Shown piece by piece: positions 3,702-12,040 of a stretch of DNA of 64,000 nucleotides. This stretch comes from Candidatus Bathyarchaeia archaeon (GTDB lineage Archaea; Thermoproteota; Bathyarchaeia; Bathyarchaeales; Bathycorpusculaceae). The stretch is from the NCBI GenBank assembly GCA_049516875.1, contig JBEKSS010000006.1:32001-96000 (forward strand), read 5' to 3'. Position numbers and translations under genes: made by a program. The first letter of the stretch is position 1. Each line of letters begins with the position of its first letter. The notes below the pieces were generated by a model. That model made no database searches and had not been told where the DNA came from. It worked only from the letters and a program-made list of their open reading frames with translations.

Positions 3702-3876
3702 GGAAGCATTGCCATTGCGGCGAAGCCAGTGTTGCTGGTTTGGCTTCAGTCGAAAAAACTTGTGCGTGAGGGTTCGACTGTTGTTTGTGAGGGTTGCATG
3801 GTTTCAGCTTGGAACGGCTTCAAGGTCGCTGGGCCTTTCATGTTGCGGGACATTAAAAGAGTGGGGGGTGGGACTT

Positions 3877-4293
3877 TTAGATTATTGGTTTCGGCTCTTC
3901 GAGTTTTCTTAGAAAGGGACGTAGAGCTGAGTGGTGAACGCTCTCTTCTGGCAAATCGTTCTTGGATATTCCGGGTGTGCCTATTTTTCTGCATATGAAG
4001 TTGAGCGAGTCTTCTGTGAAGTTTAACAGGTTTTGGCCTTCAGTCGTCAGTTTGTATACTTTTCTAGGTCTTTCAGTGCTCATGTTCCATTCGCTTTTGA
4101 CAAATCCCTTTTTCTCCAGCGTTCCCAGAAGAGGATAGATGGTGCTTGGTCCGAAGTACACTCCGAAGGCTTTTCGGATTCTTGTGATTATTTGGTAGCC
4201 GTGCATGGGCTGTCCGTTTAGGAATTGGAGTATTATCAGGTCCAGCAGGCCTTTCATCAGTTTGGCCTGAACTTCTTTTGTGTTGTTTATCAT
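3877..4293 (-). CDS. PadR-family transcriptional regulator
   Basis: PMHGYQI...STIYPLLGTLEKKG...RKVYKLT; start refined to ATG 4293. Confidence 0.9.
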   Translation of the reverse strand: MINNTKEVQAKLMKGLLDLIILQFLNGQPMHGYQIITRIRKAFGVYFGPSTIYPLLGTLEKKGFVKSEWNMSTERPRKVYKLTTEGQNLLNFTEDSLNFICRKIGTPGISKNDLPEESVHHSALRPFLRKLEEPKPII

Positions 4294-4352
4294 GGTGCCT
4301 TTCCTTCTTTTGTGTTGTTTTGTCCAACAGTATTGTTGTTGGACGTGGATAC

Positions 4353-4376
4353 GACATGTCCTCTGTATGACATATC
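4353..4376. promoter_or_regulatory. Candidate PadR operator between the divergent padR genes
   Basis: GACATGTC-N8-GACATATC dyad containing ATGT-N10-ACAT; beside TATA-like TTTATA (4384) and TATAAA (4405). Confidence 0.55.
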
Positions 4377-4494
4377 TTGAGTCTTTATAGAGACTAAACA
4401 ACGATATAAAGCTTCATGCTTACGTAAGACATAAGAAAGCATAAAGAAGCATACTGAAAAGTCCACTTCGAACATAACTCTAATAAGCCGAAGC

Positions 4495-4863
4495 ATGAAC
4501 CAGTACAGAATGAGACACAAGAAGAACGTGAAAGAATTGGCAGAAGCTTACAAAGAAGGAATTGTACAACGCATCACCAGAAACCTGCTCGACATCCAAA
4601 TGCTAAGACTCATCCAAACGCAGCCGATGTGGGGCTACATGATAAAGAAACAAGCAGAAACAAGATTCGGCGTAAAACTGAGGCATGGGGCACTGTACCC
4701 GTTGCTAAATGCCTTGGAGCGTGAAAGCTTCCTGACAAGCCAAAACCAAAGACAGGGCGGAAGAACAAGAAAAGTGTACACGCTGACCAGGAAGGGACAA
4801 CAATACATAGAAGCGTACAACAGCGTCCTGAAAGAACAACTAGAACGTCGAGACATGAAGTAG
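4495..4863 (+). CDS. PadR-family transcriptional regulator
   Basis: PMWGYMI...GALYPLLNALE...RKVYTLT. Confidence 0.9.
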   Translation: MNQYRMRHKKNVKELAEAYKEGIVQRITRNLLDIQMLRLIQTQPMWGYMIKKQAETRFGVKLRHGALYPLLNALERESFLTSQNQRQGGRTRKVYTLTRKGQQYIEAYNSVLKEQLERRDMK

Positions 4864-4926
4864 ATGTTATGCTTTTGAAGCCGTTGCTGTCAGGTCTTAA
4901 ATAGAACTAGTAGCTAACATAAAATC

Positions 4927-5925
4927 ATGGGACCAAAAAAAGGCAGAAAGCTATCCGTAGTTGTTATGGAAGAGCTTCAGGAAAGAAGCAACAGGGGGCT
5001 TGAATTCGCAAAGAAAACCATGCTGGCAGAAAGGATTGAATACGAAAAACTGCGGAAGGCATTAGAGCATTATGTTAAGAACTGGAATGATTTCACTCAT
5101 CCAGGACTGTTTTCATTAGCTTGTGAGGCAGTTGGAGGGCGTCCGGACAACGCAGTGCAGGTTCAAGCAGCTATCGCCCTGTTGGCTGCAGCCTTTGACA
5201 TACATGACGACATCATCGACGGATCAGAACAGAAACATGCCGTACCCACGGTTTTTGGAAAATATGGAAAAGACATAGCGCTTCTATTGGGAAACGCGTT
5301 CCTGATAAAGGGATTTGCACTATTCTGCGTGTCAACAGAAGCCTTAGCTCAGAAAGACGCTCGGAAAGTCATTGAAGCGTTACAAGCATCTCTGTTCGAA
5401 CTTGGCAATGCTCATGCTATGGAGTTGAACCTGAAAGGAAGAATTGACGCCGAACCGGCAGAATACATGCGAGTTGTGGAAATGAAAGCCTCAGGCATCG
5501 AGGCTGACATGTGGATTGGAGCCAAAGTCGGAGGAGGGGCAGACAAAGAAGTTGAAGCATTGACAAAATATGGGAGAAACTTGGGGACTCTGGCCACGTT
5601 GAGAGAAGAGTTCGTCGATGTTTTCGAGGTTGAAGAGTTGAATCAACGGATTCGTGGCGGATATTTGCCCATTCCGATTCTATACGCTATGCAAAATGAA
5701 GAAACGAAGGAAAGGCTGAACAAGCTGATTGCAAAAGGAAAAGCGACAAGGAGTGATACTGATGATATCGTCGGAACAGTTTTCGACGACAAAGAAGTAA
5801 TAAAGCTCAGAAAAGTTATGGCCGACCTTGTGAATGAAAGCGTTCATCTAACCTCAAGCATACGCAACAGAAAGTTAAGGACGCAACTCGCCAACCTAGC
5901 TTCCTCTACGATAGAAGACTTGTAG
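4927..5925 (+). CDS. Divergent trans-polyprenyl synthase-fold protein
   Basis: FARM intact (HDDIID); SARM replaced by EEFVD; the usual KRxR and RRG are absent. Confidence 0.85.
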   Translation: MGPKKGRKLSVVVMEELQERSNRGLEFAKKTMLAERIEYEKLRKALEHYVKNWNDFTHPGLFSLACEAVGGRPDNAVQVQAAIALLAAAFDIHDDIIDGSEQKHAVPTVFGKYGKDIALLLGNAFLIKGFALFCVSTEALAQKDARKVIEALQASLFELGNAHAMELNLKGRIDAEPAEYMRVVEMKASGIEADMWIGAKVGGGADKEVEALTKYGRNLGTLATLREEFVDVFEVEELNQRIRGGYLPIPILYAMQNEETKERLNKLIAKGKATRSDTDDIVGTVFDDKEVIKLRKVMADLVNESVHLTSSIRNRKLRTQLANLASSTIEDL

Positions 5926-6257
5926 GATCTATGGGAACAAGATTCTTACAGGAACGTCTCTTTTCTTTGCCTTCTTCATCTCTATCCCTCACAAGTATAT
6001 GTGTAGAACACATCTACTACTTAAGAGTTGCTCTGAACATGAATCTGAGCTGGTCCATTTTGAAAAATGTTTTTTTTCCAAAAGCAGTTGGCACGCGCGT
6101 ATGAAGTCAAACTCGTGTCTTCGAACGGTAACACGTTCCTCAGAACCGGCATAGCTCCAGCTTGAGCGCGTGCTATTGTCTGATTGTGTTTTGTCGGACG
6201 TGAACCTATAATCTTATTTGTCAAGCTACCAACCTAATACGAAGGAGGTGGTTTCGA

Positions 6258-6569
6258 ACGATCTTAACATTACTGCTTCTTCTAGCAGAGGTCTCAGATC
6301 AAGAAATTCTTGATGCTCTACATCAAGTCACGAATGAAATTGCCATGTTCATGTGGATGTATGCGGCAATCTGGATTCCTATGTTCGGGGCTCTCATAGC
6401 GATTTCTGTCCTGAATTACTTGCAGTACAAGAGGATGCTGCAGAAATCAAATGAGGAGGAAGCGCGGAATATTGTGTTGAGAAAGGACCTCTATGAACGT
6501 ATGGTTGAAAGAGGGGGGGACATTGAAACATACGTGAACACCGTTGTTGAAAAGTCTTTGAAGAAGTAG
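6258..6569 (+). CDS. Small membrane protein with possible C-terminal ribbon-helix-helix; start uncertain (ACG 6258 or ATG 6345)
   Basis: GGAGGTG SD at 6244-6250 precedes an in-frame ACG; one TM helix; C-terminus NIVLRKDLYERM...IETYVNTVVEKSL. Confidence 0.6.
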   Translation, partial: TILTLLLLLAEVSDQEILDALHQVTNEIAMFMWMYAAIWIPMFGALIAISVLNYLQYKRMLQKSNEEEARNIVLRKDLYERMVERGGDIETYVNTVVEKSLKK

Positions 6570-6759
6570 AGCTCAAGAAGTAAGAAATAGAGCGAGAGCA
6601 AACGATGATCTATAATGATGGGTATCTACATGTAGGCGAAATGCTGTTTGGTTAAGTGAGCGTCTTATTTTCTAAGAGTTGTGTAGACCGCGAATAAAGA
6701 TGCTGCCTAAGAAATGTTTTATCTATGAAACGTGATTCATTAATGGGTCGCATCAAGGA

Positions 6760-7980
6760 ATGCGTTTCACAGAGGTCTTCAGATCAAAGATCAACTTGAA
6801 ACAGTTTGCTCCCGCATTTGTCATCGTGTTGAACACTTTCATATGGTACACGTTGACCTATCAAATGTTCAGCATCGCCGTAGACAGTCTAGCTGTATCC
6901 GGTACTGAAAAATTAATGATTTTTGCCATGTACTTCATAGGAACTGCCTGTTCTGCACTTCTGGGAGCCACGTTCCTACGGTGTACTCGAAAGACCTACC
7001 TCTTATTGTGGATGCTTGCAGGGGCACTGATGACAGCATCGTTGATCACTATCCCAAACAACAGTACCCTATTCAATGGCCCTATCTTGTTCTTCCTAGG
7101 AGTCTCTCTTGGAACAGGCTTCCCATCATGCTTGGCCTATTTTGCTGATGCAACGACTGTCGAAACCCGAGGGACTTGTGGAGGAATAACATGGGCCGCT
7201 GTCGGTGTAGGCACCCTTATTTTGGCTTTGTTTGTAAGCAGTCTCGACCTTTACCTAACCTTTCTGACCCTTGCAGTCTGGAGAGCGCTTGGCTTCGTGG
7301 CCTTCTTCCTCATGACAAGGAGAACCAGAAAAGTCCAGCAAACGCGAACTCCTGTTACCTATTATTCTATTCTCGCCAGAAGAGACATGATTCTGTATTT
7401 GATTCCTTGGATCATGCTTTCGCTGGTCAATTTTACGGAAACCCCAATTCTGGAGAGATTGTTAACGGATTCCTATGTTTTGGTAGGATTCGTCGAATTC
7501 GCATTAGCAGGAATCTTTGCACTAGTAGGTGGCATCCTGGCAGATATCGCAGGCAGAAAACGCGTCATAATAACAGGTTTCGTCATGCTAGGCATCGGAT
7601 ACGCTGTGCTAAGCTTCTCTTCGGGACTGCCCTTTTCTTGGTATTTGTACACTGCTTGTGATGGAATCGCCTGGGGAATGTTCAGCTCAGTTTTTTTCAT
7701 AACCTTATGGGGAGACCTTGCTCAGGACCATGAGAAAGCTAAGTATTATGTACTTGGTGGTCTTCCTTTTCTTGTCTCTGGTTTTTTGGCAGTAGTAGTC
7801 AAACCCTATGTTGAGCTTATAAGCACAATTGCATCATTCTCTCTGGCTAGCTTCTTTCTTTTCTTGGCCGTCTTGCCGCTAATGTACGCGCCCGAAACCT
7901 TGCCAGAAAAGGAGATCAGGGACAGGGAACTGAAAGACTACATTGAGAAGGCGAGGAAGGTCAAGGAGAAATATGATTAG
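6760..7980 (+). CDS. MFS transporter
   Basis: About 12 hydrophobic segments; motif A GILADIAGRKR; YAPETLPE after last helix. Confidence 0.9.
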   Translation: MRFTEVFRSKINLKQFAPAFVIVLNTFIWYTLTYQMFSIAVDSLAVSGTEKLMIFAMYFIGTACSALLGATFLRCTRKTYLLLWMLAGALMTASLITIPNNSTLFNGPILFFLGVSLGTGFPSCLAYFADATTVETRGTCGGITWAAVGVGTLILALFVSSLDLYLTFLTLAVWRALGFVAFFLMTRRTRKVQQTRTPVTYYSILARRDMILYLIPWIMLSLVNFTETPILERLLTDSYVLVGFVEFALAGIFALVGGILADIAGRKRVIITGFVMLGIGYAVLSFSSGLPFSWYLYTACDGIAWGMFSSVFFITLWGDLAQDHEKAKYYVLGGLPFLVSGFLAVVVKPYVELISTIASFSLASFFLFLAVLPLMYAPETLPEKEIRDRELKDYIEKARKVKEKYD

Positions 7981-8070
7981 GGTATAGTGCTCCTTTGTGC
8001 TGTTAGGCGAGAACCTCTCATTTCACATATTTCTCGTTGCTCGCGCACATTCTAGGCGAAAGATATATCA

Positions 8071-8502
8071 ATGCTTGCTAGCAGTCTACAGAATGGAAGT
8101 TCAATGCCATCCGGGCAGTTAAGAATTTTCGCGGTTGCTTGGAACATGATGTGGGGCTTATGTTACATCTTAGTGGCAATTTTTGCGCCAGGCATCGCTG
8201 GAGAGGAGCCCTTAATTGGAGGCATTTTCTATGGGTCGGTGGGGGTTTTTGTTTTAATAGCTGTATGGTTATTGTTTGGGTCACATGCAACAATTGGGCG
8301 AATGGCCTTATTTATATTAGCTGTCTTTGAGGTTTGGGGTGGTGTTGTGTCATGGACAGGCATAGTACTATGGCAGGTGCCTTTCCCAAACAAGGAATTC
8401 TTTCAAGTTAGTATGGCTTTTGCTGATCTGCTCAGCGCTACTTTTATGTTCACTTTGTGTCTGAGCAATGATTCTGGCAGGGTAGCTCACCCTGAACCAT
8501 AG
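8071..8502 (+). CDS. Hypothetical 4-TM membrane protein
   Basis: 143-aa ORF with four hydrophobic stretches. Confidence 0.6.
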   Translation: MLASSLQNGSSMPSGQLRIFAVAWNMMWGLCYILVAIFAPGIAGEEPLIGGIFYGSVGVFVLIAVWLLFGSHATIGRMALFILAVFEVWGGVVSWTGIVLWQVPFPNKEFFQVSMAFADLLSATFMFTLCLSNDSGRVAHPEP

Positions 8503-8766
8503 GAGATAATTTTGTAAGTCATAAGTGCATGTTTCCTTAAGTAAGGCAAATGAGGGCTGCAAAACATTGAACAAATCAGCTAGGATTCTCTATGTCCGAA
8601 TTGCATTATCTTTTGCCATTTTCTTTTTTGGGAATGAGCTTCCGCTGACGTAGGCTCTTCAGAAAAAAGATCAGGGATAGAGAACGGTGGATATATGGAG
8701 AAAGGCAATGATTAACGAAAAATAGGTTTAAAAACAGGGGCCTTCTCTTTCTTGAATCGGAGAGGC

Positions 8767-8901
8767 ATGTTCTTTCATGTTATACTGACGACTAAGTGTA
8801 ATTCGCAGTGCATGTACTGCTTTGGCGAGGCATGTGAAGATGTTGATGAAGATTTTTCGGATTTTGAAGTCGACTATTCATTGCCAACCAAGATTAACTA
8901 G
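8767..8901 (+). pseudogene. Truncated 44-codon copy of the 5' end of the radical SAM gene at 9932
   Basis: MFFHVILTTKCNSQCMYCFGEACEDVDEDFSDFEVDYSLPTKIN* versus MFFHVILTTECNSQCRYCFGEALDDLDEDFSDIEVDYSLPRNMSY. Confidence 0.9.
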
Positions 8902-9428
8902 CGCGCATGGTTGTTCCTAAATTGGCTAAAAAATGGTTTTTATTCTTCTTTTGGAGTTTGGGGACAGTTTCAGGTTTCGTGCGCGCGCGCCTTACTTCAC
9001 AGACTACCCGACCTTGATAATCATGGATAGCCTACTCCATGCAATGATTGAACAAGATCCAAAGACAAGCATGAGCAAGTTCGTCAAGTACAACGTTCCA
9101 AAGTTCCTAGAAAGCCTGACAAAAAATAGAAAAGCCCGCGCCAGCCGATAATAACCGCGTTCGAATCAGATTGACAAAGCCCGTGCAATTCAAACATGAT
9201 TAGCTAAGAACGTACTTAAATGCGATAACCATTTTCAGCGCGCGCGCCAGTAACTCTGATAGGGTTCGTTCCCTTGCGCTTTGCGATGAGCCATTTTCGT
9301 TTTAGCCAATTATGTGAGTAAGTCATGTGGGCTCAAAAGAAAAATCGTGAATGACGCACAGGACTCACTTTGAGAACCGAAGATGCAACAAACCATTTAT
9401 GGTAATACTCACATGATTCTTTCGGTGA

Positions 9429-9812: not shown

Positions 9813-9931
9813 TTCATTTCTCTTAGTAGTCATCCGACGATTTTTTACATGAACCCAAATCCGACGGAGACTTTACAGAACCAAGGAAAAATACACTTAA
9901 GAGCCGGAATTCTTACTTCCAGGTGGGAAAC

Positions 9932-11056
9932 ATGTTCTTTCACGTGATACTTACCACCGAATGCAATTCACAGTGCCGATACTGCTTTGGCGAAGCATTG
10001 GACGATTTGGATGAGGATTTCTCAGACATTGAAGTTGATTATTCCCTTCCTAGAAACATGAGTTACGACGTTGCTTTGCTGGACAAGCTGTGCCAGCGAG
10101 ACAATGACTGTGTCTTGACGTTCTACGGTGGAGAACCTTTGATCTGTGTTGACAAGATCAAGCAGATCATGGATAACGTTAGGGCCAAGCTCTTCATGGT
10201 TCAAACTAACGGCCTGCTCCTAGACCGCTTGGAACCAGAATATGTGAACCGCTTTCACACGATCCTGGTTTCCATAGACGGTGATGAGGCGTTGACTGAC
10301 TTCTACCGTGGAAACGGAACGTTCAAGAAGCTCATTAGCAACTTGAAGCTGATTAAACGAAACGGTTTTCGCGGTGAACTAATAGCCAGAATGACGGTGA
10401 TGGAGCAGACCGAAATATACAAGCAGGTCAGATGGCTCTTGGAGAATGACGAGTTTCCATTCACTTCAGTGCACTGGCAGTTGAACGCGGGATTCTGGAA
10501 GAACGATTTCTCAAGGAGAGATTTCAAGCGGTGGAGCGAAGAAAACTATGATCCCGGGATCAGGAAGTTGGTCGGATTCTGGGTTGACACCATGGAAGAG
10601 GAGGGCGTTGTGTTGCGCCTTTATCCGTTCCTGGGGATAGCTGAATCGCTTCTTTCAGGCGAAGAGAAGACCCTTCTGCGGTGCGGGGGAGGATGGATAA
10701 ACTATGCCATACAAACAGACGGTTACATTGTTCCCTGTCCAACAATGTGGGGAATGAAAGACTACTATCTCGGGCACGTCGCCAGCGCAGACCCTTTGAA
10801 ACTGAAAAAAGTCCATATTGGTCAACCATGTACTAAATGCGACGCCTTCAATTTATGTGGCGGCCGATGCCTATATGCAATCGTGACTAAACGTTGGAAC
10901 CCAGAAGCATACGGACAGATATGCAGTACAGTTCGCAACCTGATACAAACAGTCTCTAGCGAAGTTCCTAGGATAAGAGAACTTATCGATATGGGGAAAG
11001 TCATACCCACGGATTTTGAATACATGAAATACAATGGATGCGAGATAATTCCCTAA
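9932..11056 (+). CDS. Radical SAM/SPASM protein, AF0577 (TIGR04084)-like
   Basis: CxxxCxxC, FYGGEP, C-terminal CxxCxxxxxCxGxC SPASM cysteines, ends YNGCEIIP. Confidence 0.9.
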   Translation: MFFHVILTTECNSQCRYCFGEALDDLDEDFSDIEVDYSLPRNMSYDVALLDKLCQRDNDCVLTFYGGEPLICVDKIKQIMDNVRAKLFMVQTNGLLLDRLEPEYVNRFHTILVSIDGDEALTDFYRGNGTFKKLISNLKLIKRNGFRGELIARMTVMEQTEIYKQVRWLLENDEFPFTSVHWQLNAGFWKNDFSRRDFKRWSEENYDPGIRKLVGFWVDTMEEEGVVLRLYPFLGIAESLLSGEEKTLLRCGGGWINYAIQTDGYIVPCPTMWGMKDYYLGHVASADPLKLKKVHIGQPCTKCDAFNLCGGRCLYAIVTKRWNPEAYGQICSTVRNLIQTVSSEVPRIRELIDMGKVIPTDFEYMKYNGCEIIP

Positions 11057-11116
11057 GAAACGATGTCTGGAAAACCATTATTAGGTTAGTTTCACAAATC
11101 ACTACTGGTGGTTTGC

Positions 11117-11443
11117 ATGTCTGTGACTTTGCGTGATGCTCAGCATTTGTGTTGGAAGAATTTTAAGAAAATCAATGAGAAGCTTGACCCTGAGCGGGGT
11201 AAGATGTGGACACCATTTGTCATGGTCACTGACTTGCTTGAGGAGGCTGGGGAGGCGGCTGCCGTGGTTAAAGGGCTGGAAGGGTTCAAGCCGCCTGAAA
11301 AACCCAAGACAAAGGAGATGCTGGCCACCGAACTCTCAGACCTGCTCTACATAATATTCGTTCTGGCAGAACACTACGGCATAGAACTCGAAGACTCGTT
11401 TCTCCAAACCGTAAACGATTACATACTCAGGTTCATAAAATAA
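11117..11443 (+). CDS. MazG-like NTP pyrophosphohydrolase
   Basis: EEAGE...ELSD acidic metal motif. Confidence 0.85.
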   Translation: MSVTLRDAQHLCWKNFKKINEKLDPERGKMWTPFVMVTDLLEEAGEAAAVVKGLEGFKPPEKPKTKEMLATELSDLLYIIFVLAEHYGIELEDSFLQTVNDYILRFIK

Positions 11444-11599
11444 GATTGTATGAACGCACGCTGTGTACGCCTGCAGTACGTATCGAATCTCGACATATGT
11501 CAAGCTGCGAAACAAGCTCTATATTAAGTCATACGATATGATATGTAGATAAGTACAACTTGAGAACAGTTGAACACAAATACAAAAGGTGTAAGTCAT

Positions 11600-12040
11600 A
11601 TGGAGAATCTGTCCCCATCAACCAAGTACAAACACAAGGCATGTTCAGATCCAGATTTGATAGAAGTGCAAAGCGTTTCTTGTGAAGTGCATGCATCAAA
11701 GGAGTCGTCGCTGCTCAATCGTGGTTTCGAGAAGCTGTTGCTGGACGCGGTAGATGAAGGGCTTGCTTGGCTTGGTGAGTCGGCAAGTCGGGCGATCTAC
11801 TATCATTTAGAAAACGATTTCAACATCAAAAGGCAGGACATTCCCTGCAAGATTGAAGGGTTCGCAGATGCGATCGAGAAAATTTTTGGGGCCGCAGCCG
11901 GGCTTCTTGAGATTGAAATAATGAAGAAGCTACATGAGAAGGTTGGAGACTCTTTCAGATATTTTCCAGAACAAAAAAACTTGGTGTTCACCGAGTACAT
12001 TAAGACCATTAAATTTTTGGATCTGAACAAGCTCCTTTGA
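11600..12040 (+). CDS. NitrOD5/DUF3227-domain protein
   Basis: LLLDAVDEGL..LGES...IYYHLE...FADAIEKIFG...LEIEI pattern. Confidence 0.72.
   Translation: MENLSPSTKYKHKACSDPDLIEVQSVSCEVHASKESSLLNRGFEKLLLDAVDEGLAWLGESASRAIYYHLENDFNIKRQDIPCKIEGFADAIEKIFGAAAGLLEIEIMKKLHEKVGDSFRYFPEQKNLVFTEYIKTIKFLDLNKLL

Follow-up and report, generated by a model that had tools for sequence, protein, structure and literature searches.

Here we describe a group of genes from a Candidatus Bathyarchaeia archaeon that includes a divergent homologue of prenyl synthases, hereafter PT, and an adjacent transporter gene of the major facilitator superfamily (MFS). The DNA analysed, referred to throughout as the window, is a stretch of 64,000 nt corresponding to positions 32001-96000 of contig C6 of a 2.43-Mb genome, and the genes in question span its 3.8-11.1 kb region. 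Four of them lie on the forward strand: the PadR-family regulator PadR2 (4495..4863, 122 aa; Pfam PadR 67.8 bits), PT (4927..5925, 332 aa; Pfam polyprenyl_synt 80.6 bits, cut-off 27), the MFS gene (6760..7980, 406 aa; Pfam MFS_1 57.8 bits, cut-off 33.4) and a gene for a radical S-adenosylmethionine (SAM)/SPASM protein (9923..11056, 377 aa; Pfam Radical_SAM 37.6 bits). A second regulator, PadR1 (Pfam PadR 68.1 bits), is encoded on the reverse strand, and both PadR proteins score above the Pfam cut-off of 27. The coding region of PadR1 is probably 3877..4293; its longest open reading frame (ORF) extends to a TTG at 4401 (174 aa), and a start at the ATG at 4293 (138 aa) appears more likely because 4294-4401 belongs to a conserved operator region and because at 16 of 31 loci the similarity to PadR1 does not set in before query residue 24. 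An earlier reading of these letters (the original prediction) had placed PadR1, PadR2, PT, the MFS gene and a 57-aa ORF (5931-6104, forward strand) correctly, and had proposed the first four as a candidate prenylation-based signalling module analogous to the ComQ/ComX pheromone system of Bacillus.

The residues of PT were compared by alignment with those of the P. horikoshii geranylgeranyl diphosphate synthase (GGPPS; 1wy0, 22% identity, 69 bits) and of the canonical GGPPS of the same genome. This genome has two PF00348 genes, the canonical GGPPS (209.6 bits) and PT (81.3 bits); the former lies on a different contig (L001 1348-2418, contig C1) and carries GGKRWRP, DDIED, RRG, GQAMD, KT and DDVLD. 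In PT the first aspartate-rich motif (FARM) is intact, as HDDIID. The GGKRxRP position reads NWNDFTHP, RRG reads KHA, GQxxD reads AHAME, KT reads KA and the FQ ahead of the second aspartate-rich motif (SARM) reads AT; the SARM itself, DDxxD in canonical enzymes, is EEFVD, the Gly-Lys...Lys-Thr block after it is replaced by ...RIRGGYLPIP, and the C-terminus is acidic (IEDL) where the canonical one is basic. By positional alignment PT is without any basic residue of the kind that binds isopentenyl diphosphate (IPP), and the helix-D His/Gln and FQ contacts are gone too. The IPP-binding motifs of isoprenyl diphosphate synthases (IDS) have been formalised in Table 1 of PMC10108439; as strict regular expressions they fail even on the canonical GGPPS of this genome, and positional alignment was used instead. 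The key residues of PT are H93-D94-D95-I-I-D98, K103, E166, K187, E227-E228-F-V-D231, R241, L247-P248-x-P250 and a C-terminal EDL. On this alignment the residues predicted to bind the allylic diphosphate and metals are kept, and those predicted to bind IPP are replaced, in part by new conserved residues. The original prediction had read the motifs in the same way (FARM kept, basic IPP residues lost, AHAME, EEFVD), and each of these readings is borne out; the implied likeness of the SARM to the degenerate motif of ComQ is not, since EEFVD is a conservative swap in which all three acidic positions are held across close homologues.

A model of PT (AF2, mean pLDDT 92.0, pTM 0.89, from a 28-row alignment) has the all-alpha trans-IDS fold. 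Its best structural match is again P. horikoshii GGPPS 1wy0 (VIA Z 32.7, rmsd 2.8, 318 residues; Foldseek TM 0.83), followed by medium- and long-chain synthases, with the indole prenyltransferase Ord1 (9v4h) lower at Z 27.7. Of the 16 curated NCBIfam synthase models matched by PT, none reaches its own cut-off; the best is that of archaeal IdsA, which scores 114.7 bits where 468 are required. A search of the ESM Atlas returned only the kin of PT itself. Members of the PT family are automatically named "geranylgeranyl pyrophosphate synthase", which is almost certainly wrong as a functional name.

A word-indexed search returned 1317 proteins at E<=1e-3, and conservation was counted in the best 120 of these, which carry Bathyarchaeota or Bathyarchaeia labels, share 51-100% identity with PT and are of near-equal length. 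H93, D94, D95, D98, K103, H163, E166, K187, R226, D231 and P248 are invariant in all 120, as is the string DDIID; W53 and H58 are found in 119, the acidic positions of the SARM are held in 117-120, and the C-terminus reads LEDL in 86. The original prediction had allowed that the substitutions might be unique to this genome and reflect decay. They are instead conserved in these 120 homologues and recur in the signature of an 86-member family, a pattern of purifying selection, and because they are nearly invariant we regard PT as a selected, non-canonical IDS derivative that has probably lost its IPP site rather than as a decaying gene.

When 1.84 billion cluster representatives were searched exhaustively, 7252 matched at E<=1e-3 and 118 at E<=1e-30. 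Of 109 full-length representatives aligned, including the query, 108 share a family pattern (xWxDxxxP, HDDIID, Lys at the RR site, G-x-A-(E/H)-x-x-E, K187, R(D/E)(D/E)xxD and NRxxNExLPLP) and one, P0261, is a canonical synthase; judged by eye, the SARM of the 108 is mostly RD(D/E)xxD or REExxD. When 86 family members were tabulated against eight canonical synthases of the same class, D94, D95, D98, E166 and D231 were present in 86/86 family members. Four positions separate the two groups: W53 (79/86 in the family, Gly in 8/8 canonical synthases), D91 (81/86, Leu in 8/8), K103 (76/86, Arg in 8/8) and R241 (85/86, Lys in 8/8). K187 (82/86) is common to canonical synthases, and the residues ahead of E227 are A223-T224-L225-R226, with R226 in 80 of the 86. 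A quick, midpoint-rooted maximum-likelihood tree of these 94 rows places the 86 family members and the eight canonical synthases on opposite sides of a branch whose SH-aLRT support is 100%. The PT family is probably an undescribed offshoot of the archaeal short-chain IDSs. At E<=1e-40 it turns up in 54 of the 401 genomes sampled from the phylum, and some genomes carry more than one copy: tandem PT-PT-MFS arrangements occur at loci L082 and L100, and a second PT copy lies downstream at L007 and L053. The two copies of one genome fall in different clades of the family tree, and such differing tandem copies might form heterodimers or yield two products.

Gene neighbourhoods were compared in three sets of loci: set A, 55 loci from a pattern scan with one genome per species, 46 of which have at least 3.5 kb of downstream room; set B, 20 loci from sampled genomes that represent other families of the class and second paralogues; and set C, 10 loci from sampled genomes of four families outside the class (f41, f53, f56 and f63). 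Labels in set A are Bathyarchaeota, Bathyarchaeia, MCG or Thermoproteota for 54 of the 55. At the remaining locus (L009) the module stands on a contig of 5 kb assigned to "Caldiserica bacterium UBA646"; this contig is probably misbinned, because its PT groups tightly with Bathyarchaeia sequences in the tree. An MFS gene adjoins PT at every locus of set A (55/55, on the same strand and at most 2.6 kb downstream), lies within 2.6 kb at 19/20 loci of set B (16 of them downstream on the same strand) and is near PT at 5/10 loci of set C, where all five f41 loci with sufficient room carry it and the sixth stops at a contig edge. The linkage of PT to a transporter gene proposed in the original prediction is in this way found across many lineages. 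Its linkage to PadR regulators fared less evenly: the upstream pair is present at a large minority of loci (20/55 within 1.8 kb in set A, where any PadR gene is found at 23/55, and 9/20 in set B) and absent from the rest, including all 10 of set C. Two neighbours had escaped the original prediction, namely the downstream radical SAM gene, which is the third conserved gene in the family of the window (within 5 kb at 47/55 loci in set A, 2/20 in set B, 0/10 in set C), and a gene for a geranylgeranyl-reductase (GGR)-like FAD enzyme (PF22578; 8/55, 1/20 and 0/10), which in set A takes three different operon positions.

The flanks of the module vary by lineage: some include genes for NAPRTase, LeuRS, H+-PPase or ABC transporters, others a gene pair for a ParA-like ATPase and a small winged-helix (wHTH) protein. 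In the last case the ATPase (AAA_31) and the small TrmB-like winged-helix protein are convergent to the MFS gene and make up a conserved four-gene neighbourhood, seen in Bathyarchaeia (L084-L087, L091-L093) and in the other class (L108, L109, L113-L115); the pair is reminiscent of the archaeal SegAB partition genes. In the other class PT is preceded by a 328-aa gene, which was considered as a possible IDS relative and rejected (hhalign probability 0.2%). The model of the MFS protein (AF2, pLDDT 84) has 12 long helices and a C-terminal helix, and the protein has a conserved Lys-rich cytoplasmic tail. It resembles many MFS transporters (TM 0.6-0.74, Foldseek E down to 3e-9), matches that are generic and uninformative on substrate, and no PDB sequence matches it at E<=1.

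PadR1 and PadR2 are divergent partners at 31 loci, and the spacer between them (4294..4494 in the window) is conserved there as nucleotides. It holds a palindrome (ACATGTC-N8-GACATAT in the window, with the core ATGTC-N8-GACAT across loci), three GCATA(A/C) repeats, TATA-like boxes and, at 4336-4357, a 22-nt element. A position weight matrix (PWM) for this element, built from 41 PT-MFS gaps alone, finds sites of at least 10 bits in the PadR1-PadR2 spacer of 21 of 35 loci, often as an overlapping inverted pair, at a density of 4.17 hits/kb against 0.094/kb elsewhere in the same loci. The window has sites at 4336 (12.8 bits) and at 6681, the latter ahead of the MFS gene; loci without an adjacent PadR pair still have the 22-nt element. 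Judged from its placement, this element is a candidate operator that would tie the promoters of the regulators themselves to that of the MFS gene, and such a shared cis-element fits a regulated make-and-export module. A genome-wide regulon defined by the same matrix was considered and is unconvincing, with 20 hits of at least 13 bits compared with 10-15 in shuffled sequence. The best genome-wide matches (23.7 and 22.5 bits; C1:457743 and C2:81100, loci L103 and L104) lie 100-220 nt 5′ of genes for secreted proteins, both of which read ...AQSSS past the signal peptide. The top match in the window itself (21 bits, 11567-11588) is at the start of an ORF at 11570-12040 (156 aa, without a family match), homologues of which occur near the module at nine other loci.

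The spacer between PadR2 and PT is 50-85 nt at most loci with the pair. A TATA-like box (CTTAAATAGAAC, 4896..4907, forward strand) about 20 nt 5′ of the PT start codon is a putative promoter element, and the corresponding spacers of the closer loci repeatedly contain a T/C-TTAAATAGAAC-like box; GCATAA boxes, found in this spacer at 3 of 26 loci only, were discarded as a conserved feature. Contigs covering 3800-4780, that is the PadR pair and its control region, reach 140 to 1320-fold summed depth (90-99% alike) as compared with 4-8-fold for PT and the MFS gene; compared with the genes beside it, the PadR pair either is far better conserved as nucleotide sequence or has a wider distribution among co-occurring relatives.

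The gap between PT and the MFS gene is usually about 130-200 nt. In the window it measures 834 nt because of a window-specific insertion at about 6086-6671, which duplicates the promoter-proximal part of a conserved non-coding element. In an alignment of 45 such gaps the DNA is more strongly conserved than the flanking proteins, with a T-rich terminator-like tract after the PT stop codon, a palindrome GTAGA-N5-TCTAC, a second site TTGTTGAACA-N2-AATACAGAAT and, in the 3′ part, a BRE/TATA-like sequence (BRE, transcription factor B recognition element) AANAANNGTTTTATCT some 35-45 nt ahead of the MFS start. The upstream copy of the element in the window (5945..6085) has the palindrome GTAGAACACATCTAC at 6003-6017 and a degenerate second site at 6030-6049. 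The copy near the MFS gene (6672..6730, forward strand) has the PWM match at 6681-6702, then the BRE/TATA-like AAGAAATGTTTTATCT (6709-6724) about 35 nt ahead of the MFS start, and would serve as its promoter. This arrangement is not a product of misassembly, since contigs from two other runs cover 4793-8925 and 5575-6824 with no differences.

The original prediction had pointed to the 57-aa, Trp-containing ORF at 5931-6104, noting that its Trp lies 17 residues from the C-terminus, unlike that of ComX. This ORF gives tblastn matches at 2 of 55 loci and overlies the conserved non-coding element; it is an artefact, and was rejected as a ComX-like precursor. Across the 45 aligned gaps there are 1-nt indels and stop codons in every frame, which excludes a conserved gap peptide, and no family of forward-strand ORFs of at least 30 aa is common to 12 or more of the 56 gap sequences (55 loci and the window). 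The insertion holds a 74-aa ORF (6345-6569) with one predicted membrane helix, without a family match and unseen at other loci. A structured RNA was rejected in favour of a DNA operator: the gap contains no Rfam family (a chance mir-129 match lies elsewhere, E 0.065), and RNAalifold finds a 5-bp palindrome only (-2.8 kcal/mol) and no consensus fold.

The radical SAM protein belongs to TIGR04084 (rSAM_AF0577; 305.1 bits, cut-off 225) and has the motif CNSQCRYC at residues 14-21. After TIGR04084, the highest-scoring models are those of peptide maturases (PapB, 97 bits), and the closest solved structures are the SPASM enzymes 5wgg and anSME (4k37). Where the gene comes after the MFS gene, the two are typically separated by about 25 nt. 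Members above the cut-off are more widespread than PT: 140 of the 301 genomes of the class have one, as does the Sulfolobus acidocaldarius control. At 18 of 18 loci from other families neither PT nor an MFS gene is nearby and no neighbour is conserved. In 27 genomes of the family to which the window belongs (f1; coordinates compared by eye), PT and the radical SAM gene lie within about 4 kb of each other, and in families f4, f5, f6 and f29 they are at least 15 kb apart or on other contigs. We treat the radical SAM gene as a lineage-specific addition to the module. A literature search found no published function for TIGR04084, and a role as an archaeal lipid enzyme was set aside, as the archaeal radical SAM lipid enzymes in preprint 10.1101/2025.10.20.683597 are B12-binding proteins of at least 500 aa from a different family.

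The interval between the MFS and radical SAM genes of the window contains a membrane ORF of 143 aa, a partial copy of the radical SAM gene that spans 49 codons of its N-terminus (8752..8901, forward strand; a pseudogene piece with 34/44 residues identical to residues 4-47 of the intact protein) and, at about 8.7-9.4 kb, a stretch that is highly repeated in metagenomes. In three peat metagenome runs 8680-9400 reaches 100 to 650-fold summed depth, with flanks at 4-8-fold, and contigs often break at its edges (loose ends at 8896, 8899, 8932 and 9303); it resembles a repeat, or a small mobile element, inserted between the fragment copy and the intact gene. Downstream of the latter, 11108-11443 encodes a 111-aa protein with a weak match to MazG/HisI-like pyrophosphatases, which is 89-92% identical at most PadR-bearing loci (64-81% at four), where PT is about 46-59% identical, and is thus unusually conserved. 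One contig in each of two runs joins position 4781, at the end of PadR2, directly to 9880 in the region upstream of the radical SAM gene, skipping 5098 nt with PT and the MFS gene; the join comes from a more abundant relative and is weak, one side being 94 nt at 90% likeness.

The nearest relatives of PT in both fold and sequence are the archaeal type-I GGPP synthases/IdsA, with which it groups by profile score and shares length, FARM and K187, and from which it differs in the absence of GGKRxR, RRG, GQ, FQ, the GK...KT block and the basic C-terminus. Trp prenyltransferases (ComQ, PalQ, ChrPC-P and StheQ, together with Ord1/XiaM) combine a kept FARM with a metal-free pseudo-SARM and share a Gln just ahead of the SARM, according to PMC13290415 (for the Gln, section 2.4), PMC12510300 and preprint 10.64898/2026.08.29.745113; by the same sources the peptide-modifying members adjoin their substrate gene, and Ord1/XiaM act on free indole or tryptophan. 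PT resembles these enzymes in its trans-IDS fold, retained FARM, lost IPP binding and a product that is probably a prenylated hydrophobic molecule leaving the cell. Unlike them, the PT family has no Gln ahead of the SARM (A-T-L-R stands there), no substrate peptide gene adjoins PT as it does the peptide-modifying enzymes, and the partner of PT is an MFS gene rather than comX/comP. The SARM also differs: PT enzymes have three acidic residues (EExxD or DDxxD), compared with DDxxA in Ord1 and NDxxD without bound metal in StheQ, and these three kept residues argue for metal binding by PT.

The motif pattern of PT is that of insect IDS-type terpene synthases, in which both acidic motifs are kept and the IPP-binding motifs lost, a loss proposed in PMC10108439 as the step from synthase to terpene synthase. 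Like those of Phyllotreta, Murgantia and termites, PT would derive from duplication of an IDS of primary metabolism; it is distinguished by a presumably independent archaeal origin, by the replacement residues W53, D91, E166 and LPxP, and by an operon with a transporter and regulators. The archaeal terpene synthases described in preprint 10.1101/2024.01.29.577750 have no Pfam domain and are a different family. On the regulatory side, a comparison is offered by PadR-regulated efflux modules of the LmrR-LmrCD type. The present locus resembles them in having PadR genes beside a transporter and palindromic ATGT...ACAT-like boxes in the control region, and differs in its two divergent PadR paralogues, an MFS rather than an ABC transporter, an enzyme gene between regulator and pump, and an archaeal host.

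Taken together, the explanation we favour, with a probability of about 0.45, is that PT derives from an IDS and is still catalytically active but no longer elongates chains, and that its isoprenoid product is handled, under PadR-type control, by the MFS protein. PT would bind and ionise an allylic prenyl diphosphate through D94/D95/D98, E227/E228/D231, K103, K187 and R241, and would be unable to bind IPP, all basic ligands of the IPP diphosphate being gone. From this loss it would follow that IPP does not capture the prenyl cation, which would instead be quenched by water or an internal double bond, as in terpene synthases, or by a hydrophobic or aromatic acceptor without a diphosphate, as in prenyltransferases; we judge chemistry of the terpene-synthase kind to be no less likely than transfer to an external acceptor. 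The hydrophobic product may then be exported or flipped by the adjacent MFS protein. Where present, the two PadR regulators would control their own promoters and that of the MFS gene through the shared operator, and would probably respond to the product or to some hydrophobic compound related to it. Further modification of the product may be due to the TIGR04084 enzyme in the family of the window, where its gene is predicted to share a transcript with the MFS gene, and to the GGR-like enzyme, whose gene appears to be co-transcribed in some genomes. A more specific proposal, that these genes form a dedicated make-export-sense circuit for a small isoprenoid in Bathyarchaeia and a second class of the phylum, is tentative and we consider it distinctly less probable than the enzymatic reading itself; equally tentative are its parts, an IPP-free terpene or prenylated small molecule released by the MFS protein and sensed by the PadR pair, which might act as a diffusible signal or a chemical weapon.

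Several observations weigh against the favoured explanation. No NSE/DTE motif of classical terpene synthases is discernible in PT, and the neighbouring genes supply no acceptor for a prenyl transfer. The PadR pair is absent from more than half of the loci, the radical SAM gene is linked to PT-MFS in a single taxonomic family, and the 22-nt element is short and not highly specific, as the counts in shuffled sequence indicate. Part of the conservation of PT-MFS could reflect old synteny rather than function, because the ParA-like/wHTH pair accompanies it in several lineages of both classes. Finally, no publication on the PT family or on this gene arrangement was found, in a search that covered few subscription journals.

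This possibility of synteny leads to the alternative that no common pathway exists, the PadR and MFS genes forming an ordinary efflux system for hydrophobic toxicants and PT being an old syntenic neighbour. PadR-regulated efflux pumps of the LmrR type are common in bacteria, the MFS gene has a promoter-like element of its own, and in two runs a contig joins PadR2 to the region upstream of the radical SAM gene without PT-MFS, on the weak evidence of the 94-nt side at 90% likeness; the company of the unrelated ParA-like/wHTH pair points the same way. We nonetheless consider this alternative unlikely, since the adjacency of PT and MFS (55/55, 19/20 and 5/10) holds while other flanks change, and persists in the tandem PT-PT-MFS loci and in a second class of the phylum. 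Somewhat less probable again is a non-catalytic role for PT, either as a regulatory or chain-length subunit paired with the canonical GGPPS or as a sensor that binds prenyl diphosphates. Heteromeric IDSs with degenerate partners are known, the small subunit of mint GPPS (3kra_B) is among the sequence matches of PT, every genome examined has a canonical IDS, and the IPP site is lost. Known non-catalytic small subunits lose their Asp-rich motifs, whereas the PT family keeps D94, D95, D98, E166 and D231 without exception and K187 in 82/86; PT also lies on another contig than the canonical synthase and is linked to a transporter rather than to genes of core isoprenoid synthesis. The original prediction had left open a non-IPP acceptor or a non-catalytic subunit: the loss of the IPP site on which both were based stands, and the second option is weakened by these invariant residues.

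It is also conceivable that PT still elongates chains through a remodelled homoallylic site, using isopentenyl phosphate, which Archaea make as an intermediate, or IPP held by other residues. Both metal-binding motifs are intact, and some distant members of the family have Arg at the xRP position and Lys or Arg after the FARM. All six classes of IPP ligand are replaced in the close family, several by the conserved residues W53, H58, A162/H163 and P248, and no NCBIfam synthase model comes near its cut-off, so that this reading seems improbable. The least probable of the alternatives, in our judgement very unlikely, is a ComQ-like route of the kind with which the original prediction had compared the module, in which PT would prenylate Trp or another residue of a ribosomal peptide that the MFS protein exports and the PadR regulators sense, closing a signalling loop; the module would then make an archaeal RiPP (ribosomally synthesised and post-translationally modified peptide) or pheromone, with a second peptide modification added by the radical SAM/SPASM enzyme in the family of the window. 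An exporter and regulators are indeed present, the radical SAM protein has peptide maturases as its next-best models and is encoded downstream at 47/55 loci, and PMC13290415, PMC12510300 and preprint 10.64898/2026.08.29.745113 describe the same kept FARM and lost IPP site in trans-IDS-like prenyltransferases. Against it stand the gap, which is conserved as DNA and holds no shared ORF, and the PadR2-PT spacer, which is only 50-85 nt long; the wide occurrence of the radical SAM gene away from PT and MFS; and the SARM, which has three acidic residues unlike the pseudo-SARMs and no preceding Gln. The analogy with ComQ/ComX is thus not supported, as both a conserved small ORF and the Gln are missing.

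Bathyarchaeia are among the most abundant archaea of anoxic sediments and peat, and their secondary metabolism and cell-cell chemistry are almost unexplored. The PT family is marked by a clear sequence signature, and with it go a fixed transporter partner and a candidate operator; the PT-MFS pair suggests the making and export of an isoprenoid not yet described, and not of a ComX-like peptide pheromone. If PT is active, it would be a third independent case of an IDS turned non-elongating and would provide a handle on a new archaeal metabolite. If the proposed circuit is true, it would be the first archaeal prenyl synthase of primary metabolism recruited to non-elongating chemistry, in parallel with ComQ in bacteria and the IDS-type terpene synthases of insects.

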